Counted from the stretch's first letter, positions 36,009-59,175 are shown. The stretch: 64,000 bases of DNA from an uncultured Verrucomicrobiae bacterium (GCA_963772365.1 CAVYXA010000001.1:320001-384000); one strand, 5' to 3'. A program made the numbers and translations. The notes: generated by a model from the sequence alone, not told the origin.

Positions 36009-36048
<40 letters not shown>

Positions 36049-36227
36049 TCAAGAACGTGTTTTTGCGCGGGTTTTCATCGGCTTGCGCACGGTTGCAGAC
36101 GCCAGGTGATTGGCCATTTAGCATTCGCGCTGCGTTGCGCAGAATTGCGCCCGTTTACACGAAAAGGACTGGCACACCGTAGAAAACGACCGTGAAAAGA
36201 CTCATTCTCTTTTTGCCAGCATGTAGC

Positions 36228-36713
36228 TCAAGCCGGCAAATGCGTTTCTCCGTGCCTTAACTCCGCAAGCTGTTCATCGAACGTCATCGCTTTGATGTGC
36301 GCATGGATGTGCTGGTGGTCATGCTCGTGCCGAATCACCAATGCCGGGTCGCCGGACAGCGCCTGGAGTTTGTCAACGCAGACACCGAAGACCGGAACGA
36401 GCTGCACGCCTTTGATCTTGCCCGCTGCTACGGCATCTTCGATTTGGTCAATTGAAGCTTGGGCAACACGTGCGGCACTTGCAGCAAGCTCTTGTTTACG
36501 TGCGCTTATAGACTCAGCCTCGCGCGCTTCAACCGCCCGGACCGTCTCTCGCGTCACATAACACGCGCGACAGATTTTCCGCGCCGATACCCCCTCGCTT
36601 AGTAACCGCATTAGTTCCCGGTAAATGCGCGGACGTTCGCGCAAGAGACGCTCGCCAGTGTAGTTGCCCTTCGGCCTCGGCTGATTCCTCAATGAGTCGT
36701 TCTCGGCTGGCAT
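36228..36713 (-). CDS. HTH-containing hypothetical protein (possibly small-terminase-like)
   Basis: LLSEGVSARKICRACYVTRETVRAV HTH-like segment, helical middle, His-rich tail; function inferred only. Confidence 0.6.
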   Translation of the reverse strand: MPAENDSLRNQPRPKGNYTGERLLRERPRIYRELMRLLSEGVSARKICRACYVTRETVRAVEAREAESISARKQELAASAARVAQASIDQIEDAVAAGKIKGVQLVPVFGVCVDKLQALSGDPALVIRHEHDHQHIHAHIKAMTFDEQLAELRHGETHLPA

Positions 36714-36847
36714 TACGTTCGCCTGAACGTTTACGCCTTACTTTGAGCAAACGCAACAGCCTTAAATGATAGCGAATCGAAGCAAAATGTCGGCGACCAT
36801 TTTTACTCTTGAAGCGCCCCGCATGGCGACGACAAGATGATGCCATT

Positions 36848-37306
36848 ATGAATGTCGCCCGTCATTTTGCCGCAACTTGCGCGGTTGTTTGTATTGTGAG
36901 CCATGCTCTAGCTGGCGAGTTTTCCGATCGAGACGGCAATTGGTGGAACACGCGTTCGAATACAGAGAAGGCTATCTACACATTAGGAATGATCGACGGC
37001 GTCGAGACTGCTGGCGCAATGCTGACACAAAAAAGCCGAAGTGTCTCAGATGACTTCGAAAGCGATTTCGCGCGATTGTTTGTAAAGACAGAAGTCAAGC
37101 AACTAAGGGAAGGAATGGATCGCTTCTACAGTGACTTTCGCAATCGCCGCGTCCCCACTTCCGACGCTTTATGGCTGGTCGCTTTGCAGATCAGCGGCGT
37201 ACCTGAAGATGAAGTCGAGCGACTTACAGTTTCGGTAAGGCGGGCGTCGTCCGAGGCTAACGCTATTGAGTTAAAGAAGGAAAAGGAAAAACTGTCACCG
37301 CCCTGA
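36848..37306 (+). CDS. Secreted hypothetical protein (weakly Rap1a immunity-like)
   Basis: Signal peptide ending ALA; DGNWW...YTLGMIDG...MDRFY pattern. Confidence 0.65.
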   Translation: MNVARHFAATCAVVCIVSHALAGEFSDRDGNWWNTRSNTEKAIYTLGMIDGVETAGAMLTQKSRSVSDDFESDFARLFVKTEVKQLREGMDRFYSDFRNRRVPTSDALWLVALQISGVPEDEVERLTVSVRRASSEANAIELKKEKEKLSPP

Positions 37307-37361
37307 GACTGTGGCTCAGAGCTACGGCGAAGGCCAACAAATCAGTGTCCGGACGCCGCCA

Positions 37362-37811
37362 ATGAAACGTTTCTTTGTCGCGCTCATCGCCTTGCTGATT
37401 TGTTGGTGCGCAAACGTCGAGTACACCGCTTATTCGGGCAGGCAACAAGATTGGCCGGTCGCCAGGGGTTCATTTGTGCAACGCAAGTTCGATGTGCCGC
37501 TTTATTTGGGGCCGCCTGATAAACCGTACCGGGTGATTGGTTCTATTGAAACCGCAGCTCCGATAGGGATTTTCGAGAGCGGTTATAGCGAGACGCTCCG
37601 GCCAGCCGCCAGAGAAGCCCGCAGGCATGGAGCAGATGCGATCGTGTTACTGGGGCGCGAGACGAATGTAACTGGGATGCTCAGCACAAGCTCCGCGTCT
37701 GCCAGCATTCGCGCTGTTGGCAATACGGCTTCCGGCAGCGCTTGGGGTTGGGGAGCAACGACGCCAATGCGACAAGCCCGCGCCCGCGTTCTCGCTATTC
37801 AATTTTTGTAA
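37362..37811 (+). CDS. Putative lipoprotein
   Basis: MKRFFVALIALLICWCA signal; PPDKPYRVIG...EARRHGADAIV. Confidence 0.75.
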   Translation: MKRFFVALIALLICWCANVEYTAYSGRQQDWPVARGSFVQRKFDVPLYLGPPDKPYRVIGSIETAAPIGIFESGYSETLRPAAREARRHGADAIVLLGRETNVTGMLSTSSASASIRAVGNTASGSAWGWGATTPMRQARARVLAIQFL

Positions 37812-37924
37812 TCAACCGGCGGCGCTATTTTTCTCGGCGTTTGATGTTCTTCAGATACCAACGAGAAGGGAACGTTCAAAGAGGCCGGATAGCTCACGGG
37901 CAAGCGCAAAAATCGGAGCCCGTC

Positions 37925-38365
37925 TTAAGGATTGAAGTTATAGTATTTTCCACCCCATTCTCGGGGATTGTACGTCGTACCATTGGGTCCGACCCATCTG
38001 ACCGGGTGTTCGGGAGTGATTCCCATCTGTGACAAATAGCGTTGCCGTTTCACCTCCGAAGTAAACGTGATGGGCACAGTGAAGACCTTACCCTTGTATG
38101 AGACAGCAACCTTAGATGCACTTCCCGCGTACAGCTTTAAGCGCGTCTTCTCGGCAATCACAATGTCGCCTGACTTTAGATGAATCTTGGTGGGATGCGT
38201 TACAACCAGGGTGCCGTATTGCCAACCAGTCGATGGTTCTGGATCGATAAAACCGAGCGCATCGGTTTGAGCGGAGCTATTTTTCGCGGCATAATGAGAC
38301 TGAGCACCGGCTGGCGACGCTCCGACAGTCCAAAATGCGATCACAGCAAGAATAACGATGTGCAT
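37925..38365 (-). CDS. Secreted hypothetical protein
   Basis: MHIVILAVIAFWTVGASPAGA signal peptide, beta-rich mature part. Confidence 0.65.
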   Translation of the reverse strand: MHIVILAVIAFWTVGASPAGAQSHYAAKNSSAQTDALGFIDPEPSTGWQYGTLVVTHPTKIHLKSGDIVIAEKTRLKLYAGSASKVAVSYKGKVFTVPITFTSEVKRQRYLSQMGITPEHPVRWVGPNGTTYNPREWGGKYYNFNP

Positions 38366-39063
38366 GCTATCCTTGTAACGAGAAAGAGCTGAGCCAGCAA
38401 TCAATAATCGCCCCACGGTGACTGTGATTTCACCAACCAATCAAACCAGTTTTCTCGCCCGTTCCAATCGTGACCGCAGATCCTCCAGTACATGTCTTCA
38501 TGGATTTTCCTAAGATTTATTTCGTTCACCAGAACCAACGCGATTTTTGTCCACGCTTGGCGCTAGGATAAAGAAAAGCCCAGCGTAAAATACGGCTAAC
38601 GCGAAAACAGGTACGCGGACATCGTTGATCATGTTGTCGTTCATAAGAGTTCTCGTTTCGACATGGTATGAAAAGCCACTACCTACTACATCCTTCCTAT
38701 GCGACTCGGCTGGAGAAATTCTGGGTATTGCTCATCAGTTGCTATGTAATGCAGGCCGATGATCACGCTAAACGGCGGCATACTCCGCCCGTCGAGCGCT
38801 GGCTTGTCGGGTCTGCTGTTCACCACAGGAACAAAATAGAAGAGCACCGACAATCAGCGAGCTGCCTTTGTGATACGAACTCTTCGCCAAAACGCCCAAA
38901 CTAATGCCCTGCCTTAGTTCTGAAGCGAGTCCTTTTCTCGCCTGTAAAAAGCAAACTCTTTGAATCCAACGTCGGCACAGCCTTACCGTAATCAGCGCGC
39001 CAAAAAGAGCCTCAGTCCATTCCGAATCTAAAGCAGTCGCTTCGTCGAACAGAAACATCTTAT

Positions 39064-39432
39064 TCACTTCCAGACGATTGCTTTTGCTCGGTATTGAATA
39101 TCCGTAAAGCTACCGCCCTCTCCACCCCATCGGCTAAATCCGAAATGCCAACCGCCCTCCTTTGTCGCTGACTCTATGTAAACAGCATCTGCCCCATGTT
39201 TGGCGGCTTCGATTCGCATCCCTTTGACGGCTTCCGCTTCAGTCTCATACTTTCCCGCAGGCGGAGTAATGATTCCGATGACGCGATGAGCTTTCTCGGG
39301 TGGCGCTTCGAAATATTGAACATGCTCCATCGTTACAGCTGCATGCGAATTCCCTTGCGGTATCCACATCTCTGGGCCGCCGCACGAAGCGAGCATCGCG
39401 AGCGAAAGTAGGAAAACGATTTTCTTCAACAC
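39064..39432 (-). CDS. Putative lipoprotein, related to 37362-37811
   Basis: Lipobox LASC; PPEKAHRVIG...EAAKHGADAV. Confidence 0.8.
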   Translation of the reverse strand: MLKKIVFLLSLAMLASCGGPEMWIPQGNSHAAVTMEHVQYFEAPPEKAHRVIGIITPPAGKYETEAEAVKGMRIEAAKHGADAVYIESATKEGGWHFGFSRWGGEGGSFTDIQYRAKAIVWK

Positions 39433-39573
39433 GGCGCTATTGAAGCAATGTTTGCCGTTTAGATGCCAGCTTTTTCTTCCCGTTTCGTCCGTCCAGCTTC
39501 GGTGAGTGTCTGCAACGTTTGACCGCTCCCGATCTTGTCAATTGCTTCTCACCGTCGAGAATCGGCTTCGTTC

Positions 39574-39747
39574 CCGTTTCCTGTGTATAGGCACGTAAAT
39601 AGGAAACGAAACAAGACGCATGGAAACGAGCTGGAAACGAACAGAAAATGAATGGCCGTTTTCCCCAGCTAGAGAGGGAAATGAGCGGGAAACGAATGAC
39701 GCCATAATGGAAACGAAGGAACGGTAAAATTATAGTTCCTCGTTTCC
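39574..39747. repeat. GGAAACGA iteron-like cluster (putative element origin)
   Basis: GGAAACGA at 39602, 39622, 39633, 39688, 39709; inverted copies at 39740 (8/8) and 39575 (7-mer). Confidence 0.7.
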
Positions 39748-41643
39748 ATCTGCGCGCTGCACGAGCGCATAGTCCCGACCGTCTTTTTTCAGCCATCCTT
39801 CACGAAAGCCTTTGGCCGCCCATTTCGAGATTGTTCCTTTGGATACTTTCATTTCTTCGGCGAGTTGGCTGCAATCGGTCACACCATCCTCAATCCATTT
39901 CCTGAAGACCTGCAATGACTCCGCCAGCTTGTGCGAAATGCTGACTGTACCTGATGTCTCGGTCACAAAGTGCCATTCGTATGCGGGGACTTCCTCTTGC
40001 GTATTCCGGCTTGGTTTGGTGAACCGGGAGATAAACCGCGCGCCTCGCTTGTCGTCCGCGTTCTGCTTGGCATCGTCCAGCGCGATAATCCAAAACACGT
40101 TATCTTCGCGCTTGCTCGTGCCGCGCATTTCACCGGAGCGCCCGGCGTGATGCACGATGACGACCGCAATCTTTCGGCGCCGTAAGTCCAAGAGCCAGTG
40201 GTTAACTTGCTCCCAACTGTCGGCTTCGTTCTCTCTCACACCGCTGGCAAGAGTTGAAAGGTTGTCCAGGATCAACGCCTTTATCCCGCTGGTGACGCAA
40301 CGGGCCGTGATCGCTTGTTGCATTTCAGGGTTCGCGATATTGAGCACTCGGCCAGCCCGTTCAAACAAGATTTCATGATTCAAAAAGTGAAGGTTTCCAT
40401 TGCTCGCGTGTAGTCCTTCAGATCTGCCGCGCATCAGATCCGGCGGCATCTCGCCATCGATGTAGAGGACATTGACTGGCGCATGCGCCGGCCAATCCCC
40501 AAGTTTTCCACCGGTGGATAACGCCTGAGCTATGCCCAGAGCAAGCCACGTCTTGCCGACACCGCGAAAGGCGAAGATAAATCCGAGATCGCCTTCGGAG
40601 AACCAGTCGCCAAGGAGTTTCTTTCGTGGAACCAAGTTGAGATCGCGCAACTCGCTCGATGTGACGACAGACTCATTGAGCGCATCGATCCATGACTTCT
40701 CCGGCTCGAAAACGACTTCGGCGTTCTTCATGGCGGCGAGCAGGTCATCGACAGTCGCACCCGCGCGCGTCCAATCGTTAAGGTCTTTGAATTGCTGCGG
40801 CGTTTTGGGCCAAAGCACCTTTCTCTCCGCGTGTGCCGCTACATCCTTGAGCCATTCATCACCCGCGCGCTTCCCGTTCTTCAATTCGTCGTTCTGTTTC
40901 CACGCGTAAACGGTCGTCCCGGCCGGGATTAGTCCAGCCACAAGCGCACCGTTTCGCGCGCCACGAGTGACAATGACTCCGGTACGTTCGCCGGATTTGT
41001 TCATAAAGGAGAAAGCGTCAAAGTAACTCTCGAAAATATGAACGGGTTCATTTGGGAGCAATTGGCCGATGATAAGCGGGCGCACCTTTGCGCCTTGCGG
41101 ATAGTATCGCCATGATCCGTCTTTCAGGCGGTAATGAACGGCAACAACTTTGTCCACGTGATCGCGTACGGGAAATGCAATGCAGCCGTCATAAAAGCCA
41201 ACAAGCCCGTTCTCTTTCGGCCAGGAACAAAACTCGATTGAGTAGCCGCGCCCGTTCGCGAGCTGTTCAATCTGATTCTCTGTGAAAGCAAGCACGCACG
41301 CACGCCAGTCCAGCGGCGATGTCGATCTTGCTGCCGATGCTTGGTTTGGAGCCGAAAGTGCAGCGCCGTTTCCTCCAGCTAACTCCAGAAACAGCTTTGT
41401 CGCGACGTTGTTCGAAACGTTGCGATGCTTTTCCAGAAAGGTGATTTCATCGCCCTCGCCGCAACCCGAATGACATTTCCAGAACCATAGTCCGGCCCCG
41501 TTCTTCCAAACGGAAAAGGAATTGTGTTTGTCATCGTGAAACGGACAACGCGCGGATTTCTTTGCGTGTTCGCCGACTCCAAGTCGATACATTAAGGTCG
41601 GAAGCGACAGCCGTTGCTTTGCCTCGCGAATGTCCGCGCTCAT
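39730..41643 (-). CDS. Primase-helicase: CHC2 zinc finger + TOPRIM-like + AAA_25/RepA-type helicase
   Basis: CPFHDD...WKCHSGCG, KDLNDW, AFRGVGKT Walker A, LILDNL, VHHAGR, RGTS. Confidence 0.9.
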   Translation of the reverse strand: MSADIREAKQRLSLPTLMYRLGVGEHAKKSARCPFHDDKHNSFSVWKNGAGLWFWKCHSGCGEGDEITFLEKHRNVSNNVATKLFLELAGGNGAALSAPNQASAARSTSPLDWRACVLAFTENQIEQLANGRGYSIEFCSWPKENGLVGFYDGCIAFPVRDHVDKVVAVHYRLKDGSWRYYPQGAKVRPLIIGQLLPNEPVHIFESYFDAFSFMNKSGERTGVIVTRGARNGALVAGLIPAGTTVYAWKQNDELKNGKRAGDEWLKDVAAHAERKVLWPKTPQQFKDLNDWTRAGATVDDLLAAMKNAEVVFEPEKSWIDALNESVVTSSELRDLNLVPRKKLLGDWFSEGDLGFIFAFRGVGKTWLALGIAQALSTGGKLGDWPAHAPVNVLYIDGEMPPDLMRGRSEGLHASNGNLHFLNHEILFERAGRVLNIANPEMQQAITARCVTSGIKALILDNLSTLASGVRENEADSWEQVNHWLLDLRRRKIAVVIVHHAGRSGEMRGTSKREDNVFWIIALDDAKQNADDKRGARFISRFTKPSRNTQEEVPAYEWHFVTETSGTVSISHKLAESLQVFRKWIEDGVTDCSQLAEEMKVSKGTISKWAAKGFREGWLKKDGRDYALVQRADGNEEL

Positions 41644-41800
41644 TGGTTGTCGATCCTGTCTTGGAGTCGCGCTTTGACTTGTTCGATCTTCCAAAAGACG
41701 AAGCTGGACGGCGCTTGCACAAAGCTGAGCAGACGATATGCTGCCATTAGTTCAGCAGTTTTGAGCGCGGCTTGCAGGCCGCGTTCTTCTTTTGGCGCTG

Positions 41801-42097
41801 TCACGATTGACCTCCGGTCTCGCCCGCGCTCGCCTTTTGTGGGTTGTAGTCGGCAGCTCGCGCCAGGAAACGATCAACTTCGGCGCGCGGAATCAGTAAT
41901 CTTCCAGCGTCGGAAATTGGTTTGACGCGTCCCGCGTAAATCTGTCGGTAGGCGTACGTCGGCGATCTCCCGACGGCTGCGGCAAACTCCCGCGGACTGA
42001 AAGCGAGCCGCTCGTTTAGGTTAACTGCTTCTGGTTTACGCGCAGGACGCGATTGCGTCTGCGCCCGATGTGTTTCTTTTTGTTTGTCGTATTGCAT
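41801..42097 (-). CDS. Excisionase-like HTH DNA-binding protein
   Basis: AFSPREFAAAVGRSPTYAYRQIYAG...RLLIPRAEVDRFL. Confidence 0.8.
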   Translation of the reverse strand: MQYDKQKETHRAQTQSRPARKPEAVNLNERLAFSPREFAAAVGRSPTYAYRQIYAGRVKPISDAGRLLIPRAEVDRFLARAADYNPQKASAGETGGQS

Positions 42098-42138
42098 CGT
42101 CTTTTTCCAGAACGATGCGACGCGACACGGTTTAATCG

Positions 42139-43188
42139 TTACGTTCCGTCAGTTTTTTTTCGTAACTTCGTCGCATTACCCCAGACGGGCAGTCCACGTG
42201 AATTACGGTGATTGGGAACCGCCACATGCCTAACGAACTCGGCAAGAGGCGCTTTGTTTCGCTTCTCTCTATTACCAACAAACCGAAGGCCGTCCGTAAT
42301 CCAATTTCTCCGGAAGTTCGCTTCCGTTGCTTTCTCGGCCTCAGCAAATCCACGCGCGACAGCAGACTTTCTTACTTCCTCCGCACGCCAGGCATATCGA
42401 CGGAAGATTGGATAACACCACCACACCCAGCGTTCTAGTGCCGTGCAATCTTTTTCTCCTTTTTCTGCCAGCCTCGCGGCTTTCTCCAGAATGTTCGACC
42501 AGTGCCGCCGATTCCACGGCACGCCTTGCGAATCTACAGCAAGACCCCAGCCTTCCCACACGTGCGCCCCTCTGAGTTTTCGCCCTTTCCAGCCGTCAGA
42601 TTCAATTATGCGCGCGGGAAATTTCGCGAGCATCTCGGCTTGAATTGCGCACGCCCTAGCGTCTGGATCATCACCTTGCCAAGCAGCGCGATTTAGCTTA
42701 AACGCAATCCACATGCTGAGAGATTCCTGCGCCTCGATCCAGGACGCGATTGAATCGAGGAGGAAAAGAAATGATACGCAATCTCCAAGCTTGGAACGTT
42801 CGTGTTCAGGCAGCACCCAAGCGAGGCGTTCAGTAGCAGGTATCGCACACAGCGCGTTGATTTCTTCGAAGTGCAATCGACGTGGTTCGTCATAACCAAG
42901 CTGCAGCGAGCGATCAGTGACAAGCGAATAACAAAGAGACATCGTGTCGATGAGGCGATTCTTCCCTGCTAACTCGATTCGTTGCGTGAGATTCTCAATC
43001 AGTCGGCCGTTCTGAAATCGCAGTTTGTCCGGTTCTGATGTGAGGCATTCCGTTTCGAGCTGGCCCCGCAAATCGTTTATAGCGTCCCACCAGATTTGCT
43101 GACCGTACGGAAAACCAATATGCAACTTTGGCGTCGCTTTTCTACGCAACCTCCACCGACGGTTGCCGCTCACTCCTTTTTTCTTCAC
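42139..43188 (-). CDS. Hypothetical protein (Trp-rich) of the integrated element
   Basis: 349-aa ORF between integrase and xis; no motif recognised. Confidence 0.65.
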   Translation of the reverse strand: MKKKGVSGNRRWRLRRKATPKLHIGFPYGQQIWWDAINDLRGQLETECLTSEPDKLRFQNGRLIENLTQRIELAGKNRLIDTMSLCYSLVTDRSLQLGYDEPRRLHFEEINALCAIPATERLAWVLPEHERSKLGDCVSFLFLLDSIASWIEAQESLSMWIAFKLNRAAWQGDDPDARACAIQAEMLAKFPARIIESDGWKGRKLRGAHVWEGWGLAVDSQGVPWNRRHWSNILEKAARLAEKGEKDCTALERWVWWCYPIFRRYAWRAEEVRKSAVARGFAEAEKATEANFRRNWITDGLRFVGNREKRNKAPLAEFVRHVAVPNHRNSRGLPVWGNATKLRKKTDGT

Positions 43189-43401
43189 AATTTTTCCGGC
43201 TAGCCTAACCGTTTAGCGTTCGAGCCGGGGCGGAGCGTTGAGGCGGTCCCCCCCGCCGGGGCCTGCCAGGTGTCGAGGCGATTCGCACGACATGGAAGTA
43301 GGCCGGCTCTGGCGGGCGCAATCGCGGGGCCGGTTTGTGCTTCACTTTCTTGCCTGCGTAGCGCGGTGGTTCCTCTGATGCGAGTGGCTTAAGGTCGGCG
43401 C

Positions 43402-44547
43402 TCATGCACTGGCGGGAAACGGAATCACGTCGGCTTGCTTTGTCGTGACCGGCGCGAACGTGACGCGCTGAGCTTGTGCGATGCTGTGCTCACGTCGCAA
43501 ATGACCATAGGTTTTCATCGCCAGCGCCCCGCCGTCCTTGTGTCCAAGCCAGCGCGAAACGGTCGGAATGTCCACGCCCGATTCGATGCAGATCGTCACA
43601 AATAAATGCCTCAAATCGTGATGGGTCAGCCGTGATATTCCGAGCTTCTTACATGCGCTATTGATTGCCCGCTGCGCTTCATTAACACAGAAAACTTTTG
43701 CTGTCGGAGGTTCCTTCAAACGCCCTTTTCGCATTCGTTGAAGCAGAACACGCAGATCGGGAATCATCGGTACTCGGCGCACCGTCCAATTCTTCGTTCC
43801 TGTTTCAGGATCGCCGCGAATGACAACTTCATTGGCCTCAAAGTCCACGTCTCGCCATTCAATCTGTACTGCTTCACCTTTTCGGCATCCAGTGAATGCC
43901 AGTCCTCGCAGAAAGTCTGCGCAATCGCGGGAACACCACGCGCCGGCACGCTCCACTGCATCTACAAGCTGTAAAAATTCTTCCCGGCTTGGAAGTGTGG
44001 GTTGTTTTGCACGCACTCGCACCCGCTCTAGTTTCGCCGCTGGATTGCCGTACATGACGCCCGCATCAATCGCTACCTCGAATACATGCCGCAGCCCAGA
44101 GATCGTGTTGTTGTATCTCGTATCCGACGCCACCTTGCGAAAACGTCGTGCCCATTCTTTACATTCCGTTCTTGTAATGCGTCGGATTTCCCGATCCGCA
44201 AGACCGGGCCAGCTTTTGAGCAGCGCTACAAAAATCTGATTCCAATAATGTCGCGTGCTCGGCTTAATGTCGGGGTTATCGGCCTGATTCTGTTGATGGC
44301 TCGCCAGCGCTTTGGCGAAAGTCATTTTGGCCGACACGTGGCCATTCCCATTCTCGAAGCGCTCCCGGTGTTCATTGAGAAATTGAGCGAGCTTCGCTTG
44401 CGCTACGCTGAAATGTGATGTGCCGAGAGCCTTCCAAACCTCTTTGCCGTGAGCGAAAGCTCTGGCATAATAGCTGCCGGACTTATGCCGAAGAAGGTTT
44501 GGAAGTCGCGTTCGTTGCCACGTTTTCGCTGCTTTGCGCTCTTTCAT
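43402..44547 (-). CDS. Tyrosine recombinase/integrase
   Basis: TGCRKGE, TKN, HDLRH, WLGH, KTY catalytic set; adjacent to tRNA. Confidence 0.96.
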   Translation of the reverse strand: MKERKAAKTWQRTRLPNLLRHKSGSYYARAFAHGKEVWKALGTSHFSVAQAKLAQFLNEHRERFENGNGHVSAKMTFAKALASHQQNQADNPDIKPSTRHYWNQIFVALLKSWPGLADREIRRITRTECKEWARRFRKVASDTRYNNTISGLRHVFEVAIDAGVMYGNPAAKLERVRVRAKQPTLPSREEFLQLVDAVERAGAWCSRDCADFLRGLAFTGCRKGEAVQIEWRDVDFEANEVVIRGDPETGTKNWTVRRVPMIPDLRVLLQRMRKGRLKEPPTAKVFCVNEAQRAINSACKKLGISRLTHHDLRHLFVTICIESGVDIPTVSRWLGHKDGGALAMKTYGHLRREHSIAQAQRVTFAPVTTKQADVIPFPASA

Positions 44548-44622
44548 AAAGCCGACCGTAGAATAGCACCGTGAAAAGCGCAACACGAATCTTTTCCAGT
44601 CGGGCGAATTACCTAGGTAAAT

Positions 44623-44695
<73 letters not shown>

Positions 44696-45381
44696 CTGTT
44701 TATTTTCGATTTTCGATCGGGGATTTGCGATTCTCGATCTTGTGCAATCACTGGCACCCCGGCTGGAACAACGCGAGGAATCGGTTGAGTTGCGCGACTG
44801 GCCACGGGTTTGAAGTCACCGGCAGTGTATCCATTTCTCGCTCCCTGGTGGATATCGTCGGCCATTGCTTATTGGTCAGGACAGCCCCGGGGGTGCGGGG
44901 AGCTCCCACGAAAGCTTTCAGGGGATTGCCGACAGCGCTCGCTTTTACCTGGGCGAGGTCGGGCGCGAGCGAAGCAAATCCTCGCGAGACATCGAGTCCA
45001 GTAGGTTTTCAGCTATGACGCCGAGCGAGTGAGGGAGAATTCAGCGTCCATTTTGGGGCGAATCCTTCGCGGAATGATCTTTGCTCTATGTTGGATCGCC
45101 GCCGAGCCAGGCGCCGCCGTTTCTTGTGTTATCAGGCCAGAACGATGCGGCCAAACTTTACCGGGTTGTGAAGAAGCTGTGAAAAAGTTGACTTTTTACG
45201 TGAGAAAGTTTTGACATCGAGGCCCAATATCTGGAATAATAGCGCGTGTTGAAAAAATTCATCCCACAGAAACCGATGTCCGGCGATCAGCGAAGGATCG
45301 TCGAACTCGGCCACCGATGATAGCAACCGATTCGCGTTTCGCGAACAACCAAGAACATCCACAACCGATTACCAAAAAACT

Positions 45382-55337: not shown

Positions 55338-56781
55338 AACTTCATCCGACGGACGTCCTTCTGCGCCCGGATAATAAGCGCGTAGTCGTGCGCCCCTTTA
55401 TCTCAACCGATCCTGCACGGGTAGAACATATCATCGCCCGCGCTCTTACGCTCAGCGAGTCGGAAACCGACAAACAGCTCGCGTTAGTTCGAGCGGATTT
55501 TGGCGAGAGACATGTCGACCTTGATAAAAGTTGGCTACGGCACTTTGAAAAGGTGCGAGCACAGGTTCCCAACGGTAAAACGATTTCCAAAGCACGCCGG
55601 CTATTCATTGGTGCTCTTTTTTCCGGCGAGTACGCACTCGAATCGACCGCATTATTTAATCCCTCGATTATTCCGCACCCCGACCAGACTGGTTTAAGGC
55701 AGGGTGAACTCCGTTTTATCTTAGCCTCCGCTCGACCGGGGAAGGTCATATCTCATCGATCCAGTTTCGAGCCGGTGTGGTCCGTCGTGATCACTCAGTC
55801 CGGATCGAGAAAACGACGCCTTTCGTAACACTGCCGGAGCTTAATCCCAATCCGGCCTACCATAAACGCACCTTCCTGGACAAACTGAGCGAGATGGGGC
55901 TGGAGAACGATTGGGCCGCGTCAGTCATGGGAAGATTAGGAAAAACTTTTCTGTTTGACGAACTGGTCGAGTCCATTCAACAAGCAGCACCGGACGAGGC
56001 TTCCTCACAAGCGCGTGACGTGCAGCGAACTTTGGAATGCATGCACTGGCTCGCGGAATCCAACTACGAAATTCATTTCAAATCTTCCTCACAAATATCG
56101 GAACGCATTATCTTTCCGGTCTCGTCTAACGAGAGCAATGGGATTGAGGACGCCCGTTTTGTTCGATTTGTCGAAGACGATGGTAGCGTAATCTACTACG
56201 CGACCTACACAGCTTACAACGGCCGAGTCATTCTCCCGCAGCTGATCGAGACCGCGGATTTCCTGCACTTCCGTGTCCTGACCCTTAACGGACAGGCGGT
56301 GCAAAACAAAGGGATGGCGCTCTTTCCCAGACGCATAAACGGGTATTACGCTATGCTTTCGCGACAGGACGATGAGAATCTCTTCCTCGCCTTTTCCGAC
56401 AACCCGCATTTTTGGAGTGACCCAGAGCTACTACTAGACCCTCGCCAGCCGTGGGAGTTCGTAAAGCTGGGCAACTGTGGTTCACCAATTGAAACCGAAG
56501 CTGGCTGGTTGGTTCTCACTCACGGCGTCGGTCCAATGCGGAAGTATTGCATCGGAGCCATCTTGCTTGACCTGCACGATCCCGCCAAAATCATTGGACG
56601 ACTCAAAGAGCCGCTCTTAAGACCGGAAGGCAGTCAAAGGGAAGGCTACGTGCCAAATGTGGTTTATTCCTGTGGTTCCCTCGTCCACAACGGGCAACTG
56701 ATGCTGCCTTATGGCATCAGCGATACAGATTCTGGCATTGTCAGAGTAGAGCTAAATGAGCTTTTGGCTGGCCTTATCTAA
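55334..56781 (+). pseudogene. Glycoside hydrolase family 130 protein, frameshift near 55730
   Basis: ALFNPS, NGIEDARFV, YATYTAYNG, NKGMALFP, EGYVPNVVYSCG. Confidence 0.88.
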
Positions 56782-56912
56782 GAGGAGCGCTCTTCCAAAT
56801 ACCGCTTCTTACTGATCTATTCGTTCCCGCAATCCGCAGTCGTGTCATTCGACTTTAACCGTAAAATCCTCGAAACGGCTTTTGTCGGAAGAAGCTGGAG
56901 TCGAGCCAGTTA

Positions 56913-56987
56913 TGGCTCCAGAGGTAGGATTCGAACCTACGACCAATCGGTTAATCCCGACTGTGTCGGGACTCTAGCACTGAGCTA
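56913..56987 (-). pseudogene. Defective tRNA-Asn copy with 17-nt palindrome replacing the 5' anticodon-stem strand
   Basis: 56913-56954 identical to the tRNA-Asn 3' half; palindrome 56955-56971; D-arm remnant 56972-56987. Confidence 0.9.
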
Positions 56988-57241
56988 GGTTTATATCTGA
57001 GCAACTCCTTTCGGATTCTACGGGCAGATTTCCATGATTTGATTTCGCGTTCGCGACGCATCGCGCTGGACCTGTCGGGATAATCTTCGACCCAAGCCAA
57101 AGTCCAGGGCCCGTTCTTACGAGTAAATTTGCCCAGGATCCTATCCGTTCGATTGTGGCTTAAGATTCTTTGGGGGACGTCATCGGAATGGCCGATGTAG
57201 AATCTGCCGACTGGATTTTGGAGAATGTATACCGCAAACAT
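56951..57241 (-). CDS. Stand-alone GIY-YIG nuclease (96 aa), tRNA-Asn-associated
   Basis: AVYILQ..GRFYIG..QRILSHN..GPW..AMRREREIK; ATG 8 nt after the tRNA CCA. Confidence 0.92.
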   Translation of the reverse strand: MFAVYILQNPVGRFYIGHSDDVPQRILSHNRTDRILGKFTRKNGPWTLAWVEDYPDRSSAMRREREIKSWKSARRIRKELLRYKPSSVLESRHSRD

Positions 57242-57249
57242 GAAAAATT

Positions 57250-57324
57250 TGGCTCCAGAGGTAGGATTCGAACCTACGACCAATCGGTTAACAGCCGACC
57301 GCTCTACCACTGAGCTACTCTGGA
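57250..57324 (-). tRNA. tRNA-Asn(GTT), CCA encoded
   Basis: TCCAGAGTAGCTCAGTGGTAGAGCGGTCGGCTGTTAACCGATTGGTCGTAGGTTCGAATCCTACCTCTGGAGCCA. Confidence 0.97.
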
Positions 57325-57377
57325 TCGCTGATTGAGATCGGTCGTATATTTGTCCAGCGTTTCTCTCCAAGCAACTG

Positions 57378-57432
57378 CCAATCGGTTAATCCCGACTGCA
57401 TCGGGACTCTACCACTGAGCTACTCTGGATCG
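57378..57432 (-). pseudogene. 5' tRNA-Asn fragment carrying the same palindrome substitution, T arm missing
   Basis: TCCAGAGTAGCTCAGTGGTAGAG-TCCCGATGCAGTCGGGA-TTAACCGATTGG. Confidence 0.88.
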
Positions 57433-57536
57433 TGTTTCGCCCGATGAGCGGGCTGAATCTTGCGCAGAGGAGTGCGCGCAGCAAGTGATTTGGTTGCGGG
57501 GGGCGGATTTGAACCGCCGATCCGGCAGCTGCCGGA

Positions 57537-57800
57537 TTATGAGCGGCGAACCCTAGGAAAACCCGTAATTGCGTAAAAGCCCGCTCCTCTGCCTTGTCGT
57601 TTCAATCGGTTCTCCATCTTCCTAGCGTCGCTCAGCAACATCGGCTCGCTCTGCCAGACCATCTTCCAGGGACCGCGTCCTTTGGTCCAGCGGGATTCGC
57701 CGGAATTGTGTTGGCGCGTTCTTCTTTCAACATCATCGGTAACTCCAACATAAAATCTGCCCGTGTCATTTTGAAGGACGTAGACCCGGTAAGTTACCAA
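57537..57800 (-). CDS. GIY-YIG nuclease, distal copy with divergent C-terminus (87 aa)
   Basis: RVYVLQ..RFYVG..RRTRQHN..GPW..ARKME; TTG start. Confidence 0.9.
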   Translation of the reverse strand: MVTYRVYVLQNDTGRFYVGVTDDVERRTRQHNSGESRWTKGRGPWKMVWQSEPMLLSDARKMENRLKRQGRGAGFYAITGFPRVRRS

Positions 57801-57860
57801 AGCGCCAGAAAATTTGGTTGCGGGGGGCGGATTTGAACCGCCGATCCGGCAGCTGCCGGA

Positions 57861-58121
57861 TTATGAGCCATCCCGATGCAGACCTGTCATCGCGTAGAAG
57901 CCCGAGCCTCTCCCTTGCCGCTTCAGCCGGTTCTCCATTTTCCTTGCTTCGCCTAGAGTTATCGGCTCGCTCTGCCAGACCATCTTCCAGGGACCGCGTC
58001 CTTTGGTCCAGCGGGATTCGCCGGAATTGTGTTGGCGCGTTCTTCTTTCAACATCATCGGTAACTCCAACATAAAATCTGCCCGTGTCATTTTGAAGGAC
58101 GTAGACCCGGTAAGTTACCAA
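57861..58121 (-). CDS. GIY-YIG nuclease, array copy (86 aa)
   Basis: Same motifs; protein identical to the other 86-aa copies. Confidence 0.9.
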   Translation of the reverse strand: MVTYRVYVLQNDTGRFYVGVTDDVERRTRQHNSGESRWTKGRGPWKMVWQSEPITLGEARKMENRLKRQGRGSGFYAMTGLHRDGS

Positions 58122-58181
58122 AGCGCCAGAAAATTTGGTTGCGGGGGGCGGATTTGAACCGCCGATCCGGCAGCTGCCGGA

Positions 58182-58442
58182 TTATGAGCCATCCCGATGC
58201 AGACCTGTCATCGCGTAGAAGCCCGAGCCTCTCCCTTGCCGCTTCAGCCGGTTCTCCATTTTCCTTGCTTCGCCTAGAGTTATCGGCTCGCTCTGCCAGA
58301 CCATCTTCCAGGGACCGCGTCCTTTGGTCCAGCGGGATTCGCCGGAATTGTGTTGGCGCGTTCTTCTTTCAACATCATCGGTAACTCCAACATAAAATCT
58401 GCCCGTGTCATTTTGAAGGACGTAGACCCGGTAAGTTACCAA
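58182..58442 (-). CDS. GIY-YIG nuclease, array copy (86 aa)
   Basis: Identical repeat unit. Confidence 0.9.
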   Translation of the reverse strand: MVTYRVYVLQNDTGRFYVGVTDDVERRTRQHNSGESRWTKGRGPWKMVWQSEPITLGEARKMENRLKRQGRGSGFYAMTGLHRDGS

Positions 58443-58502
58443 AGCGCCAGAAAATTTGGTTGCGGGGGGCGGATTTGAACCGCCGATCCGGCAGCTGCCG
58501 GA

Positions 58503-58763
58503 TTATGAGCCATCCCGATGCAGACCTGTCATCGCGTAGAAGCCCGAGCCTCTCCCTTGCCGCTTCAGCCGGTTCTCCATTTTCCTTGCTTCGCCTAGAG
58601 TTATCGGCTCGCTCTGCCAGACCATCTTCCAGGGACCGCGTCCTTTGGTCCAGCGGGATTCGCCGGAATTGTGTTGGCGCGTTCTTCTTTCAACATCATC
58701 GGTAACTCCAACATAAAATCTGCCCGTGTCATTTTGAAGGACGTAGACCCGGTAAGTTACCAA
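58503..58763 (-). CDS. GIY-YIG nuclease, array copy (86 aa)
   Basis: Identical repeat unit. Confidence 0.9.
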   Translation of the reverse strand: MVTYRVYVLQNDTGRFYVGVTDDVERRTRQHNSGESRWTKGRGPWKMVWQSEPITLGEARKMENRLKRQGRGSGFYAMTGLHRDGS

Positions 58764-58823
58764 AGCGCCAGAAAATTTGGTTGCGGGGGGCGGATTTGAA
58801 CCGCCGATCCAGCAGCTGCCGGA

Positions 58824-59084
58824 TTATGAGCCATCCCGATGCAGACCTGTCATCGCGTAGAAGCCCGAGCCTCTCCCTTGCCGCTTCAGCCGGTTCTCCA
58901 TTTTCCTTGCTTCGCCTAGAGTTATCGGCTCGCTCTGCCAGACCATCTTCCAGGGACCGCGTCCTTTGGTCCAGCGGGATTCGCCGGAATTGTGTTGGCG
59001 CGTTCTTCTTTCAACATCATCGGTAACTCCAACATAAAATCTGCCCGTGTCATTTTGAAGGACGTAGACCCGGTAAGTTACCAA
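58824..59084 (-). CDS. GIY-YIG nuclease, tRNA-proximal array copy (86 aa)
   Basis: Starts 14 nt after the CCA of tRNA-fMet. Confidence 0.9.
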   Translation of the reverse strand: MVTYRVYVLQNDTGRFYVGVTDDVERRTRQHNSGESRWTKGRGPWKMVWQSEPITLGEARKMENRLKRQGRGSGFYAMTGLHRDGS

Positions 59085-59098
59085 AGCGCCAGAAAATT

Positions 59099-59175
<77 letters not shown>

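Follow-up and report, generated by a model that had tools for sequence, protein, structure and literature searches.

The minus strand of a 64,000-nucleotide stretch of DNA from an uncultured soil bacterium of the Verrucomicrobiae (GCA_963772365.1, CAVYXA010000001.1:320001-384000; the whole stretch is hereafter called the window) carries, between positions 56,913 and 59,175, the genes for the initiator tRNA-Met (tRNA-fMet) and for tRNA-Asn. Each is followed by one or more cassettes, consisting of a small open reading frame (ORF) for a GIY-YIG nuclease and a partial tRNA copy (pseudo-copy) in which part of the anticodon arm has been replaced by a GC-rich hairpin. All genes and tRNA-derived segments described for this region lie on the minus strand.

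The intact tRNA-fMet (anticodon CAT; 59099..59175), recognised by ARAGORN and by Rfam (RF00005, 63 bits), stands at the head of an array of five tandem cassette units (57491..59098), for which Tandem Repeats Finder revealed a period of 321 base pairs (bp), with 5.1 copies and a 97% match between 57488 and 59128. Each unit comprises, in this order, a 14-nucleotide (nt) spacer, the ORF, the anticodon-loop remnant GCTCATAA, a palindrome and a copy of tRNA-fMet positions 48-77. Units 1-4 (58778-59098, 58457-58777, 58136-58456 and 57815-58135) have 321 bp each and differ in 1 nt; unit 5 (57491-57814) has 324 bp. Because the first 175 nt of unit 5 are identical to those of the other units and 29 differences then fall within the following 95 nt (positions 176-270), this unit is considered a mosaic.

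The ORF of unit 1 (58824..59084) encodes 86 amino acids (aa) from a TTG start and matched PF01541 with an E value of 2e-12; the ORFs at 58503-58763, 58182-58442 and 57861-58121 are identical to it, and unit 5 encodes a variant of 87 aa, also with a TTG start (57537-57800). The reading frame ends ...GCTCA-TAA, the TAA being part of GCTCATAA, and directly 3' of the stop codon follows the palindrome TCCGGCAGCTGCCGGA (57521..57536, 57845-57860, 58166-58181 and 58487-58502) or, in unit 1, its one-substitution form TCCAGCAGCTGCCGGA (58808-58823, changed base at 58811). The palindrome stands in place of CCTGAAGG, which corresponds to tRNA positions 39-46. Allowing up to two mismatches, TCCGGCAGCTGCCGGA gave 5 matches in the window versus a mean of 0.03 in 100 shuffles, and its fold as DNA was calculated at -7.3 kcal/mol, with -4.1 kcal/mol for the substituted copy. 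The units close with exact 30-nt copies of tRNA-fMet positions 48-77 (57491..57520, 57815-57844, 58136-58165, 58457-58486 and 58778-58807; 100% by blastn, five times).

At tRNA-Asn, hairpins are found on both sides of the intact gene. An upstream scar of the original tRNA-Asn gene (57378..57429) is composed of tRNA positions 1-23 (57407-57429), the hairpin TCCCGATGCAGTCGGGA (57390-57406) and the 12 nt TTAACCGATTGG (57378-57389). It is followed by a second, diverged tRNA-Asn leader copy of 53 nt inside the insert (57325..57377), which starts with CAGTTGCT, where the native spacer has CACTTGCC, and ends with CTCAATC; by eye, it is closer to the leaders of other genomes than to that of its own genome. 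The intact tRNA-Asn (GTT; 57250..57324; ARAGORN, Rfam), situated within the inserted segment, is the sole Asn tRNA gene found in the genome. The ATG start of a 96-aa GIY-YIG ORF (56951..57241; PF01541, E 7e-15) lies 8 nt past it. The end of this ORF includes what is left of the D arm, in degenerate form (56972-56989), and the hairpin TCCCGACACAGTCGGGA (56955..56971, fold -6.9 kcal/mol), which stands in place of CGGTCGGCTG, the stretch exchanged in the Asn copies; the ORF stops at the TAA of the anticodon-loop remnant (...GGGAT-TAA-CC). The 3' arm of this hairpin, GTCGG, equals the 5' strand of the anticodon stem. An exact 42-nt copy of tRNA-Asn positions 34-75 (56913..56954; 100% by blastn) represents the 3' part of the original gene. 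The initial annotation had described the five fMet palindromes, including the substituted copy, the two Asn hairpins, the replaced stretches and a stop of all six GIY-YIG ORFs at the TAA of the anticodon loop; every one of these features was recovered in the window.

Two other classes of element were considered and rejected for the region. A group I intron in the anticodon loop was dismissed, as Rfam (E up to 1) returned only the two intact tRNAs, Asn and fMet, both uninterrupted and both also the only ones reported by ARAGORN. Likewise, the pseudo-copies are not tRNA-like RNAs; they obtained no tRNA score at E up to 1 in Rfam, and most are devoid of the 5' acceptor strand.

Nuclease genes and the empty site

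Three of the window ORFs were scanned and matched PF01541 with E values of 2e-12 to 7e-15 and 46-55.5 bits (cut-off 22.6); the remaining three are identical copies. The proteins consist of the GIY-YIG catalytic domain alone, with the Pfam domain spanning residues 5-71 of 86. Apart from the overlapping T5orf172, no second family and no DNA-binding module beyond the catalytic domain was detected in them, and NCBIfam returned nothing above its cut-offs. No variation was seen at residues Y7, Y17, G19, R27, H31 and E63 among 30 sequences from seven clades. The ratio of non-synonymous to synonymous substitution rates (dN/dS) between the two fMet ORF variants of the window is 0.23, and values of 0.18-0.23 were obtained where dS was unsaturated; the cassette ORFs are under purifying selection. 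From the invariant catalytic residues and dN/dS, the nuclease gene is predicted to be functional. It is the only gene in the 321-bp units, and no tyrosine or serine recombinase gene was found inside the insert.

In the following, G000 denotes this genome, G001 and other G numbers related genomes, and L numbers the loci of relatives. In G001, a member of the same genus, tRNA-fMet is followed by a 64-nt spacer and tRNA-Asn, with neither ORF nor hairpin nor pseudo-copy, so that the site is occupied in G000 and empty in G001 at both tRNA genes. The counterpart of that spacer in the window (57430..57490) extends from the last fMet pseudo-copy as far as the Asn scar and resembles the G001 spacer in its start and end motifs, as compared by eye and unaligned. 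Its position implies that the distal pseudo-copy holds the 3' end of the original tRNA-fMet gene, and that the original tRNA-Asn gene was split, with the working tRNA-Asn and the diverged second leader lying in inserted DNA. The comparison with G001 identifies the cassettes at fMet and Asn as insertions. A locus of another genus, L003, has the identical Asn scar and junction and a duplicated leader, and no ORF past the intact tRNA, as would be expected if the unit had later been lost between its direct repeats.

Recurrence in the genome and in relatives

Further tRNA genes of G000 carry the same kind of insertion. At tRNA-Lys(TTT), located at a contig end (C6:1-700, minus strand), the full form with both scars and the ORF is present, in the order 5' scar with CCCCGAAAGCTTTCGGGG, intact tRNA, 82-aa GIY-YIG ORF and hairpin-patched 3' copy; the ORF ends in TGA ahead of the tRNA-derived part. 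At tRNA-Val(CAC) (C3:636800-637060), a 5' scar with the hairpin GTCGCCGCCGGCGAC and a downstream pseudo-copy with GTCGCCGCGGCGAC were found, and since only 46 nt and no ORF separate the tRNA from the pseudo-copy, this locus looks like a cassette minus its nuclease gene. An upstream scar was detected at tRNA-Gln(TTG). At these loci a hairpin takes the place of the entire anticodon arm, with the sequence CCCCGAA-AGCT-TTCGGGG in Lys and Gln and GTCGCCGCGGCGAC in Val. Elsewhere in G000, an orphan GIY-YIG ORF of ~105 aa (C3:612868-613213) has no adjoining tRNA and is followed shortly after its end by the near-palindrome GTCGCTGCGGCGAC; its branch in the protein tree is long and adjoins the Asn-a clade.

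A match to the fMet-type protein was obtained in 34 of 61 related genomes, a tally that takes in the two unpublished genomes G003 and G014, and many of these matches occur as tandem pairs spaced at 304-328 bp. In 21 of 29 loci of the relatives, the ORF is closely preceded by an intact tRNA on the same strand (fMet, Met, Asn, Pro or Lys), and all 21 of these have a GC palindrome within the tRNA-derived segment after the ORF. The eight exceptions, one of which (L021) comes from the unpublished G014, form one clade, where the gene is flanked by inverted hairpins resembling repetitive extragenic palindromes (REP). In this clade (L006-L008, L011, L012, L015 and L017), the hairpins are CCGCGTAAAAGGCTTCGCCTCACGCGG and variants thereof, with several solo copies nearby; L015 adjoins the 3' end of tRNA-Gln, where ~25 nt are duplicated.

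A set of 31 fMet-type loci from metagenome-assembled genomes (MAGs) labelled Verrucomicrobiota, Chthoniobacterales or Ca. Udaeobacter has tRNA-fMet upstream in 27 cases. In 22 of the 31 ORFs the stop codon lies in the anticodon loop, directly followed by the TCC...GGA hairpin in 21 and by a rearranged form in L050, and in five loci, representing a variant, the T arm is replaced and the stop is elsewhere. In a phylum-wide sample, the family profile matched (E up to 1e-8) in 134 of 301 genomes, and 17 of 28 newly fetched loci from it adjoin a tRNA and have hairpins of the types ATCCCGC..GCGGGAT and TCCCGAC..GTCGGGA.

Rearranged forms were also encountered. Between tRNA-fMet and a complete cassette, L041 has two tandem ORF-less mini-units of 59 nt (1060-1185), each consisting of the 7-nt start of the spacer, GCTCATAA, the palindrome and the 30-nt copy of the tRNA 3' part, and these look like non-autonomous derivatives. 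Tandem upstream scars occur in L023 and L029, and scars differ from the intact tRNAs at naturally variable positions. A search of viral contigs gave no relative of the fMet clade and, for the Lys/Met clade, only three matches to an N-terminal motif, so that collection offers no hint of a phage vehicle. Among public sequencing runs, none contained more than 0.10 of the words sampled from 56700-57480.

Linkage, boundaries and dispersal of the hairpins

To relate protein and hairpin, the label combining target tRNA and hairpin type was mapped on a protein tree of 53 sequences, requiring 9 changes, the minimum for 10 groups, versus a mean of 36 for shuffled labels, on a tree whose support values are modest and whose members are related and not independent. 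Target tRNA and hairpin type follow the nuclease clade. In the fMet clade, the stems compensate (TCCGGC/GCCGGA versus TCCCGC/GCGGGA), and the loops, of 0-7 nt, vary in both length and sequence. Compensated stems with free loops argue for a hairpin working as a folded single strand rather than for a neutral scar, and a dimer site in double-stranded DNA is unlikely, since the half-site spacing would range from 0 to 7 nt.

The junctions follow a regular pattern. Just 5' of the palindrome, the exact match to the tRNA is 7-9 nt long in 38 of 48 downstream pseudo-copies from four clades, and this flank covers different parts of the tRNA: positions 31-38 for fMet and Asn-b, and positions 19-26 for Pro, Lys and Met. 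For the upstream scars, where the matching tRNA stretch follows 3' of the hairpin, 13 loci gave lengths of 7, 12, 12, 8, 7, 6, 7, 7, 12, 7, 7, 7 and 18 nt, nine of them within 6-8 nt. Mostly similar flank lengths at differing tRNA positions imply that the junctions are set relative to the hairpin and not to the tRNA fold.

Two rules proposed in the initial annotation were narrowed by these data. The replacement of one anticodon-stem strand describes the window correctly and does not extend to Lys, Met, Pro and Val, where the whole anticodon arm is exchanged, or to the fMet-b clade, where it is the T arm. Similarly, the supply of the stop codon by the anticodon loop is seen in the 22 fMet-type loci mentioned above and in Asn-b, and is absent from Lys, Met, Pro, fMet-b and most Asn-a relatives. 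In fMet-a and Asn-b, the hairpin occupies the place of positions 39-46, and the preceding 8 nt are the 3' part of the anticodon loop with its TAA. The stop is kept despite changed neighbouring bases, several loci carrying GCGCATAA or ACTCATAA, and L042 has TGA at the equivalent place. The stop-codon rule is thus a consequence of the hairpin placement in two clades and not a general property.

The genome of G000 is rich in hairpin repeat families, and it has hairpins on both sides of the cassette at Asn, Lys and Val. Two hairpin families are also dispersed as solo copies. The fMet palindrome was found exactly at three further genome sites versus ~0.002 expected (estimated from base composition), the Val/Pro-type palindrome has 4 exact sites, and the Lys-type palindrome has 15 sites at up to two mismatches; the Asn-a hairpin was confined to the two Asn sites. 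Of the 15 Lys-type sites, 6 lie in, or up to 70 nt from, a tRNA gene or pseudo-copy, neighbourhoods that make up ~0.4% of the genome. The suspicion that the hairpins are generic dispersed repeats with no bias to tRNAs or GIY-YIG genes, raised at the outset as a counter-argument, was only partly right, as dispersed copies exist and the bias is strong.

Directly past the 3' end of tRNA-Gly(GCC) (C1:275821) and of tRNA-Ala(CGC) (C3:409235), a Lys-type palindrome was observed; at tRNA-Gly, it grows to a 34-nt palindrome together with the last 7 nt of the tRNA. A role as the normal tRNA terminators of the genome was ruled out, since a hairpin directly follows only 2 of 48 tRNA genes. A terminator scan of the region was negative for the coding (minus) strand, and no T-run was seen after the hairpins.

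Related systems and proposed explanation

For comparison, the Ssn family comprises site-specific nucleases with NTS/SRM hairpin repeats and is reported as the first to act on single-stranded DNA only, its role outside Neisseria being left open (Chenal et al., Nat Commun 2025, PMC11893778). According to that paper, the 94-aa SsnA of Neisseria meningitidis has a GIY-YIG domain as its only domain, binds NTS (palindrome ATTCCCGCG..CGCGGGAAT with oriented flanks) as single-stranded DNA only and cuts 3 nt ahead of the 28-nt motif, corresponding to 7 nt 5' of the palindrome; the variants Y6A, Y17A and E64A are inactive. In other phyla, homologues cleave close to hairpins of their own; a hairpin of this kind lies near 71% of the homologue genes, and the hairpin-ssnA-hairpin layout is called insertion-sequence-like by the authors (PMC11893778).

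As far as described there, this system and the cassettes share a single-domain GIY-YIG protein of ~90 aa with corresponding residues (Y6/Y17/E64 in SsnA, Y7/Y17/E63 in the cassettes), a gene flanked by a cognate GC hairpin that co-varies with the protein, and solo hairpins dispersed in the genome. The cassette core ATCCCGC..GCGGGAT+C (fMet, Asn-b and phylum-wide) resembles the NTS ATTCCCGCG..CGCGGGAAT+C, and the cassette junctions lie 7-8 nt from the palindrome, comparable to the SsnA cut 7 nt 5' of it. In contrast to Ssn, the cassette hairpin is located inside a disabled tRNA copy and the gene directly 3' of an intact tRNA, whereas the word tRNA is absent from the main text of PMC11893778; moreover, the cassettes have few hairpins per genome, where Ssn has hundreds, and form tandem arrays. 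By analogy, the cassettes are an Ssn-like nuclease-hairpin pair in what is predicted to be a tRNA-targeting, tRNA-duplicating form.

SegB of the phages T4 and T6 is longer than the cassette proteins and has a DNA-binding part. Its gene is a GIY-YIG gene situated by tRNA genes, and tRNA cleavage, recombination and tandem tRNA-nuclease amplification are described for it (PMC13096335); by analogy, SegB is an experimental precedent for GIY-YIG-driven tRNA-nuclease amplification. Unlike the cassettes, SegB is a phage enzyme cutting double-stranded DNA, and its description there includes neither hairpin-patched pseudo-tRNAs nor insertion into a chromosomal tRNA gene. The REP/RAYT (Y1) and IS200/IS605 systems, as outlined in PMC11893778 and in general terms, likewise have a small nuclease gene bracketed by hairpins, solo copies and single-stranded recognition, and their layout is matched here by the REP-flanked clade; in contrast to GIY-YIG nucleases, their HUH/Y1 enzymes are able to rejoin DNA, and tRNA duplication does not form part of that outline. 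With integrase islands, the cassettes have in common the insertion into a tRNA gene, the regeneration of an intact tRNA and a partial direct repeat left behind; they differ in having no integrase, in their size of ~0.3 kb instead of kilobases, and in the hairpin that replaces part of the repeat. No description of small GIY-YIG cassettes in bacterial tRNA genes was found in the full-text literature, in a search that took in few subscription journals.

The window itself contains an island of 8.6 kb (36010-44696), extending from a 39-nt copy of tRNA-Met positions 1-39 (36010-36048) to the intact tRNA-Met (44623-44696), with a tyrosine integrase (43402-44586, PF00589) by the tRNA and an AAA_25/CHC2 zinc-finger primase-like protein (39730-41694). 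As an ordinary integrase island without a hairpin is present in the same window, the hairpin-patched copies appear specific to the GIY-YIG cassettes. On contig C5 of G000, the first 40 nt of tRNA-Thr(TGT) occur at 1430-1469 and 43495-43534, each time followed by a shared sequence of ~39 nt and without a hairpin; the intact gene is on contig C4, and the partial copies may be the ends of another tRNA-targeting element. On the same contig, 38 kb separate tRNA-Val(GAC) from an exact copy of 45 nt of its 3' part (118825-157090), the two probably delimiting a large integrated element; ARAGORN also reports a tRNA-like gene with the four-base anticodon gaaa there (80873-80964).

From the linkage, junction and recurrence data, we consider it probable that the cassettes constitute a family of very small selfish nuclease-plus-hairpin units lodged in tRNA genes, with the hairpin acting as the cis-site of its own nuclease. 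Each cassette would combine a single-domain GIY-YIG gene (86-96 aa) with a GC-rich DNA hairpin belonging to that nuclease, and the hairpin would serve as cis-site and as mark of the cassette junction inside a disabled copy of the target tRNA, where it replaces part of the anticodon arm. Insertion would take place via recombination, with the tRNA sequence serving as homology, and would always leave the nuclease gene between one intact tRNA, immediately upstream, and a downstream 3' pseudo-copy that is patched with the hairpin and keeps the original 3' flank. In the full form, represented by Asn and, elsewhere in the genome, by Lys and Val, a hairpin-patched 5' scar would be added, and the working tRNA and its leader would be inside the insert. 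The canonical arrangement would read leader, tRNA positions 1-26, hairpin and 7 nt; then second leader, intact tRNA, spacer and ORF; and finally 8 nt, hairpin and tRNA positions 44-76.

Concerning the mechanism, a break within the anticodon arm of the original gene, or close to it, may be mended with an occupied allele or a circular unit as template, in which 8 nt, hairpin and 7 nt replace the arm, with all DNA between the two hairpin junctions being copied in during repair. By analogy with Ssn, binding of the nuclease to its hairpin would occur in single-stranded DNA, and a nick would be made a few bases to the 5' side; repair of such breaks off neighbouring tRNA-derived repeats would lead to insertion into empty alleles, and later unequal repair off hairpin-bearing repeats could add upstream scars, as in L023 and L029, or downstream ORF units, as in the five fMet units and the pairs of many relatives. 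The replacement of the anticodon arm would disable the spare copies and shorten the direct repeats. The anatomy of the cassettes, the empty site, the linkage of clade, tRNA and hairpin, the covariation of stems, the purifying selection and the mosaic units are observed here; the cleavage target of the nuclease, the strand and the recombination pathway are inferred. Recombination among units would fit the mosaic unit 5, the mini-units of L041 and the differences between scars and intact tRNAs at variable positions, and the pseudo-copies themselves look like recombination products.

Several points weigh against this explanation. GIY-YIG enzymes hydrolyse DNA and do not join it, so every joining step has to be assigned to host recombination, and plain unequal crossing-over, without a nuclease, could be enough for the arrays. 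The Asn-a clade departs from the 8-nt rule, with 0 of 5 pseudo-copies having a 7-9 nt flank and a longer D-arm remnant in its place. The counts among relatives overstate the number of separate events, because kin are not independent. By sequence, the closest solved relatives of the cassette proteins are UPF0213 proteins (1zg2, 1ywl) and Slx1, with no Ssn protein among them. Finally, the SRM pattern, in the form published, gave 18 matches in G000 versus 24-34 in five block shuffles, and none at a cassette hairpin; for Chthoniobacter flavus, belonging to the same order by the MAG labels, a cd10448 homologue without SRM enrichment is reported (PMC11893778).

Of the functions offered for the hairpin in the initial annotation, namely a nuclease recognition site or REP-like end, a repair footprint and an immunity mark, the first is the best supported, given the clade linkage, the compensated stems, the bracketing hairpins, the solo copies and the Ssn analogue. 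An immunity mark is plausible and compatible with the data; it cannot be the whole story, because the intact tRNA by the cassette keeps its anticodon arm. This idea is part of an alternative we regard as unlikely, in which a classical free-standing homing endonuclease cuts the double-stranded anticodon arm, and the hairpin is an unbound immunity mark and a block of non-homology. Empty and filled alleles both exist, the hairpin always removes a part of the tRNA (the anticodon arm, or the T arm in fMet-b) from the pseudo-copies, the full structure is as would be expected from break repair of a cut anticodon arm off an occupied allele, and SegB is reported to cut within tRNA genes and to drive tandem tRNA-segB amplification by homologous recombination (PMC13096335). 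On the other hand, characterised GIY-YIG homing enzymes carry DNA-binding modules (PMC11893778), whereas a bare catalytic domain is found here; an immunity scar need not remain a hairpin, yet the stems compensate; the palindrome families also occur solo, away from tRNAs; and the intact tRNA would remain cuttable. The location of the hairpin directly past the stop codon in the fMet cassettes, an ORF that begins 8-25 nt past the tRNA and for which that strand shows no obvious separate promoter, and stem covariation with free loops, which is equally expected of RNA, could also indicate a hairpin that works as RNA, either as a terminator or as a site of processing or 3' stabilisation for a nuclease mRNA co-transcribed from the tRNA promoter. 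This is quite improbable in view of the missing T-run and the silent terminator scan on the coding strand, the Asn-a hairpin inside the ORF, and the upstream scars, which carry the same hairpin with no preceding ORF; with 2 of 48 tRNA genes followed by one, the hairpin is not a native tRNA terminator either, and SsnA is reported to show no RNA interaction (PMC11893778).

We are yet more doubtful about a domesticated host function, whereby foreign DNA would be taken up or recombined less readily at tRNA loci that carry a nuclease-hairpin pair. A function of this kind has been proposed for SsnA of Neisseria, which lowers transformation with hairpin-bearing DNA ~five-fold (PMC11893778). Purifying selection on the ORFs and the wide distribution (134 of 301 genomes of the phylum) would suit such a role, but the cassettes are patchy among close relatives, with G001 having no fMet and Asn cassettes and G000 missing the Met (GCCAGGG-type) cassette of its relatives, and their tandem amplification, together with scars, decayed copies and mini-units devoid of an ORF, is typical of selfish DNA. 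The repair-footprint proposal, according to which the palindromes derive from the target itself, e.g., by fold-back synthesis at the broken anticodon stem, would explain the identity of the Asn-a 3' hairpin arm with an anticodon-stem strand; it is nevertheless the least credible and may practically be set aside, as one palindrome is common to Lys, Met and Gln and another to Pro and Val despite unrelated anticodon stems, and, within a nuclease clade, the hairpin is preserved from species to species.

Returning to the favoured selfish cassettes with a hairpin cis-site, a more far-reaching version can be offered tentatively: they may be autonomous selfish elements of ~300 bp and of an undescribed kind, in which an Ssn-type single-stranded-DNA nuclease, together with its hairpin, homes into essential tRNA genes, keeps the host alive with a spare tRNA that is either brought along or regenerated, crosses species by means of tRNA homology and expands into arrays via self-inflicted breaks. 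For annotation, the pseudo-copies should not be taken for tRNAs, and the ORFs overlap tRNA-derived sequence. Lodging in tRNA genes, partial duplication and amplification would be a recurring behaviour of a small GIY-YIG nuclease with its hairpin. If true, this would account for many odd tRNA fragments and unannotated ORFs of ~90 aa beside tRNA genes in MAGs, and would provide many natural nuclease-hairpin pairs of differing specificities for work with single-stranded DNA. The cassettes would be among the smallest self-contained bacterial mobile units known, and the Ssn family would gain a testable natural function, as the engine of a widespread tRNA-gene parasite.

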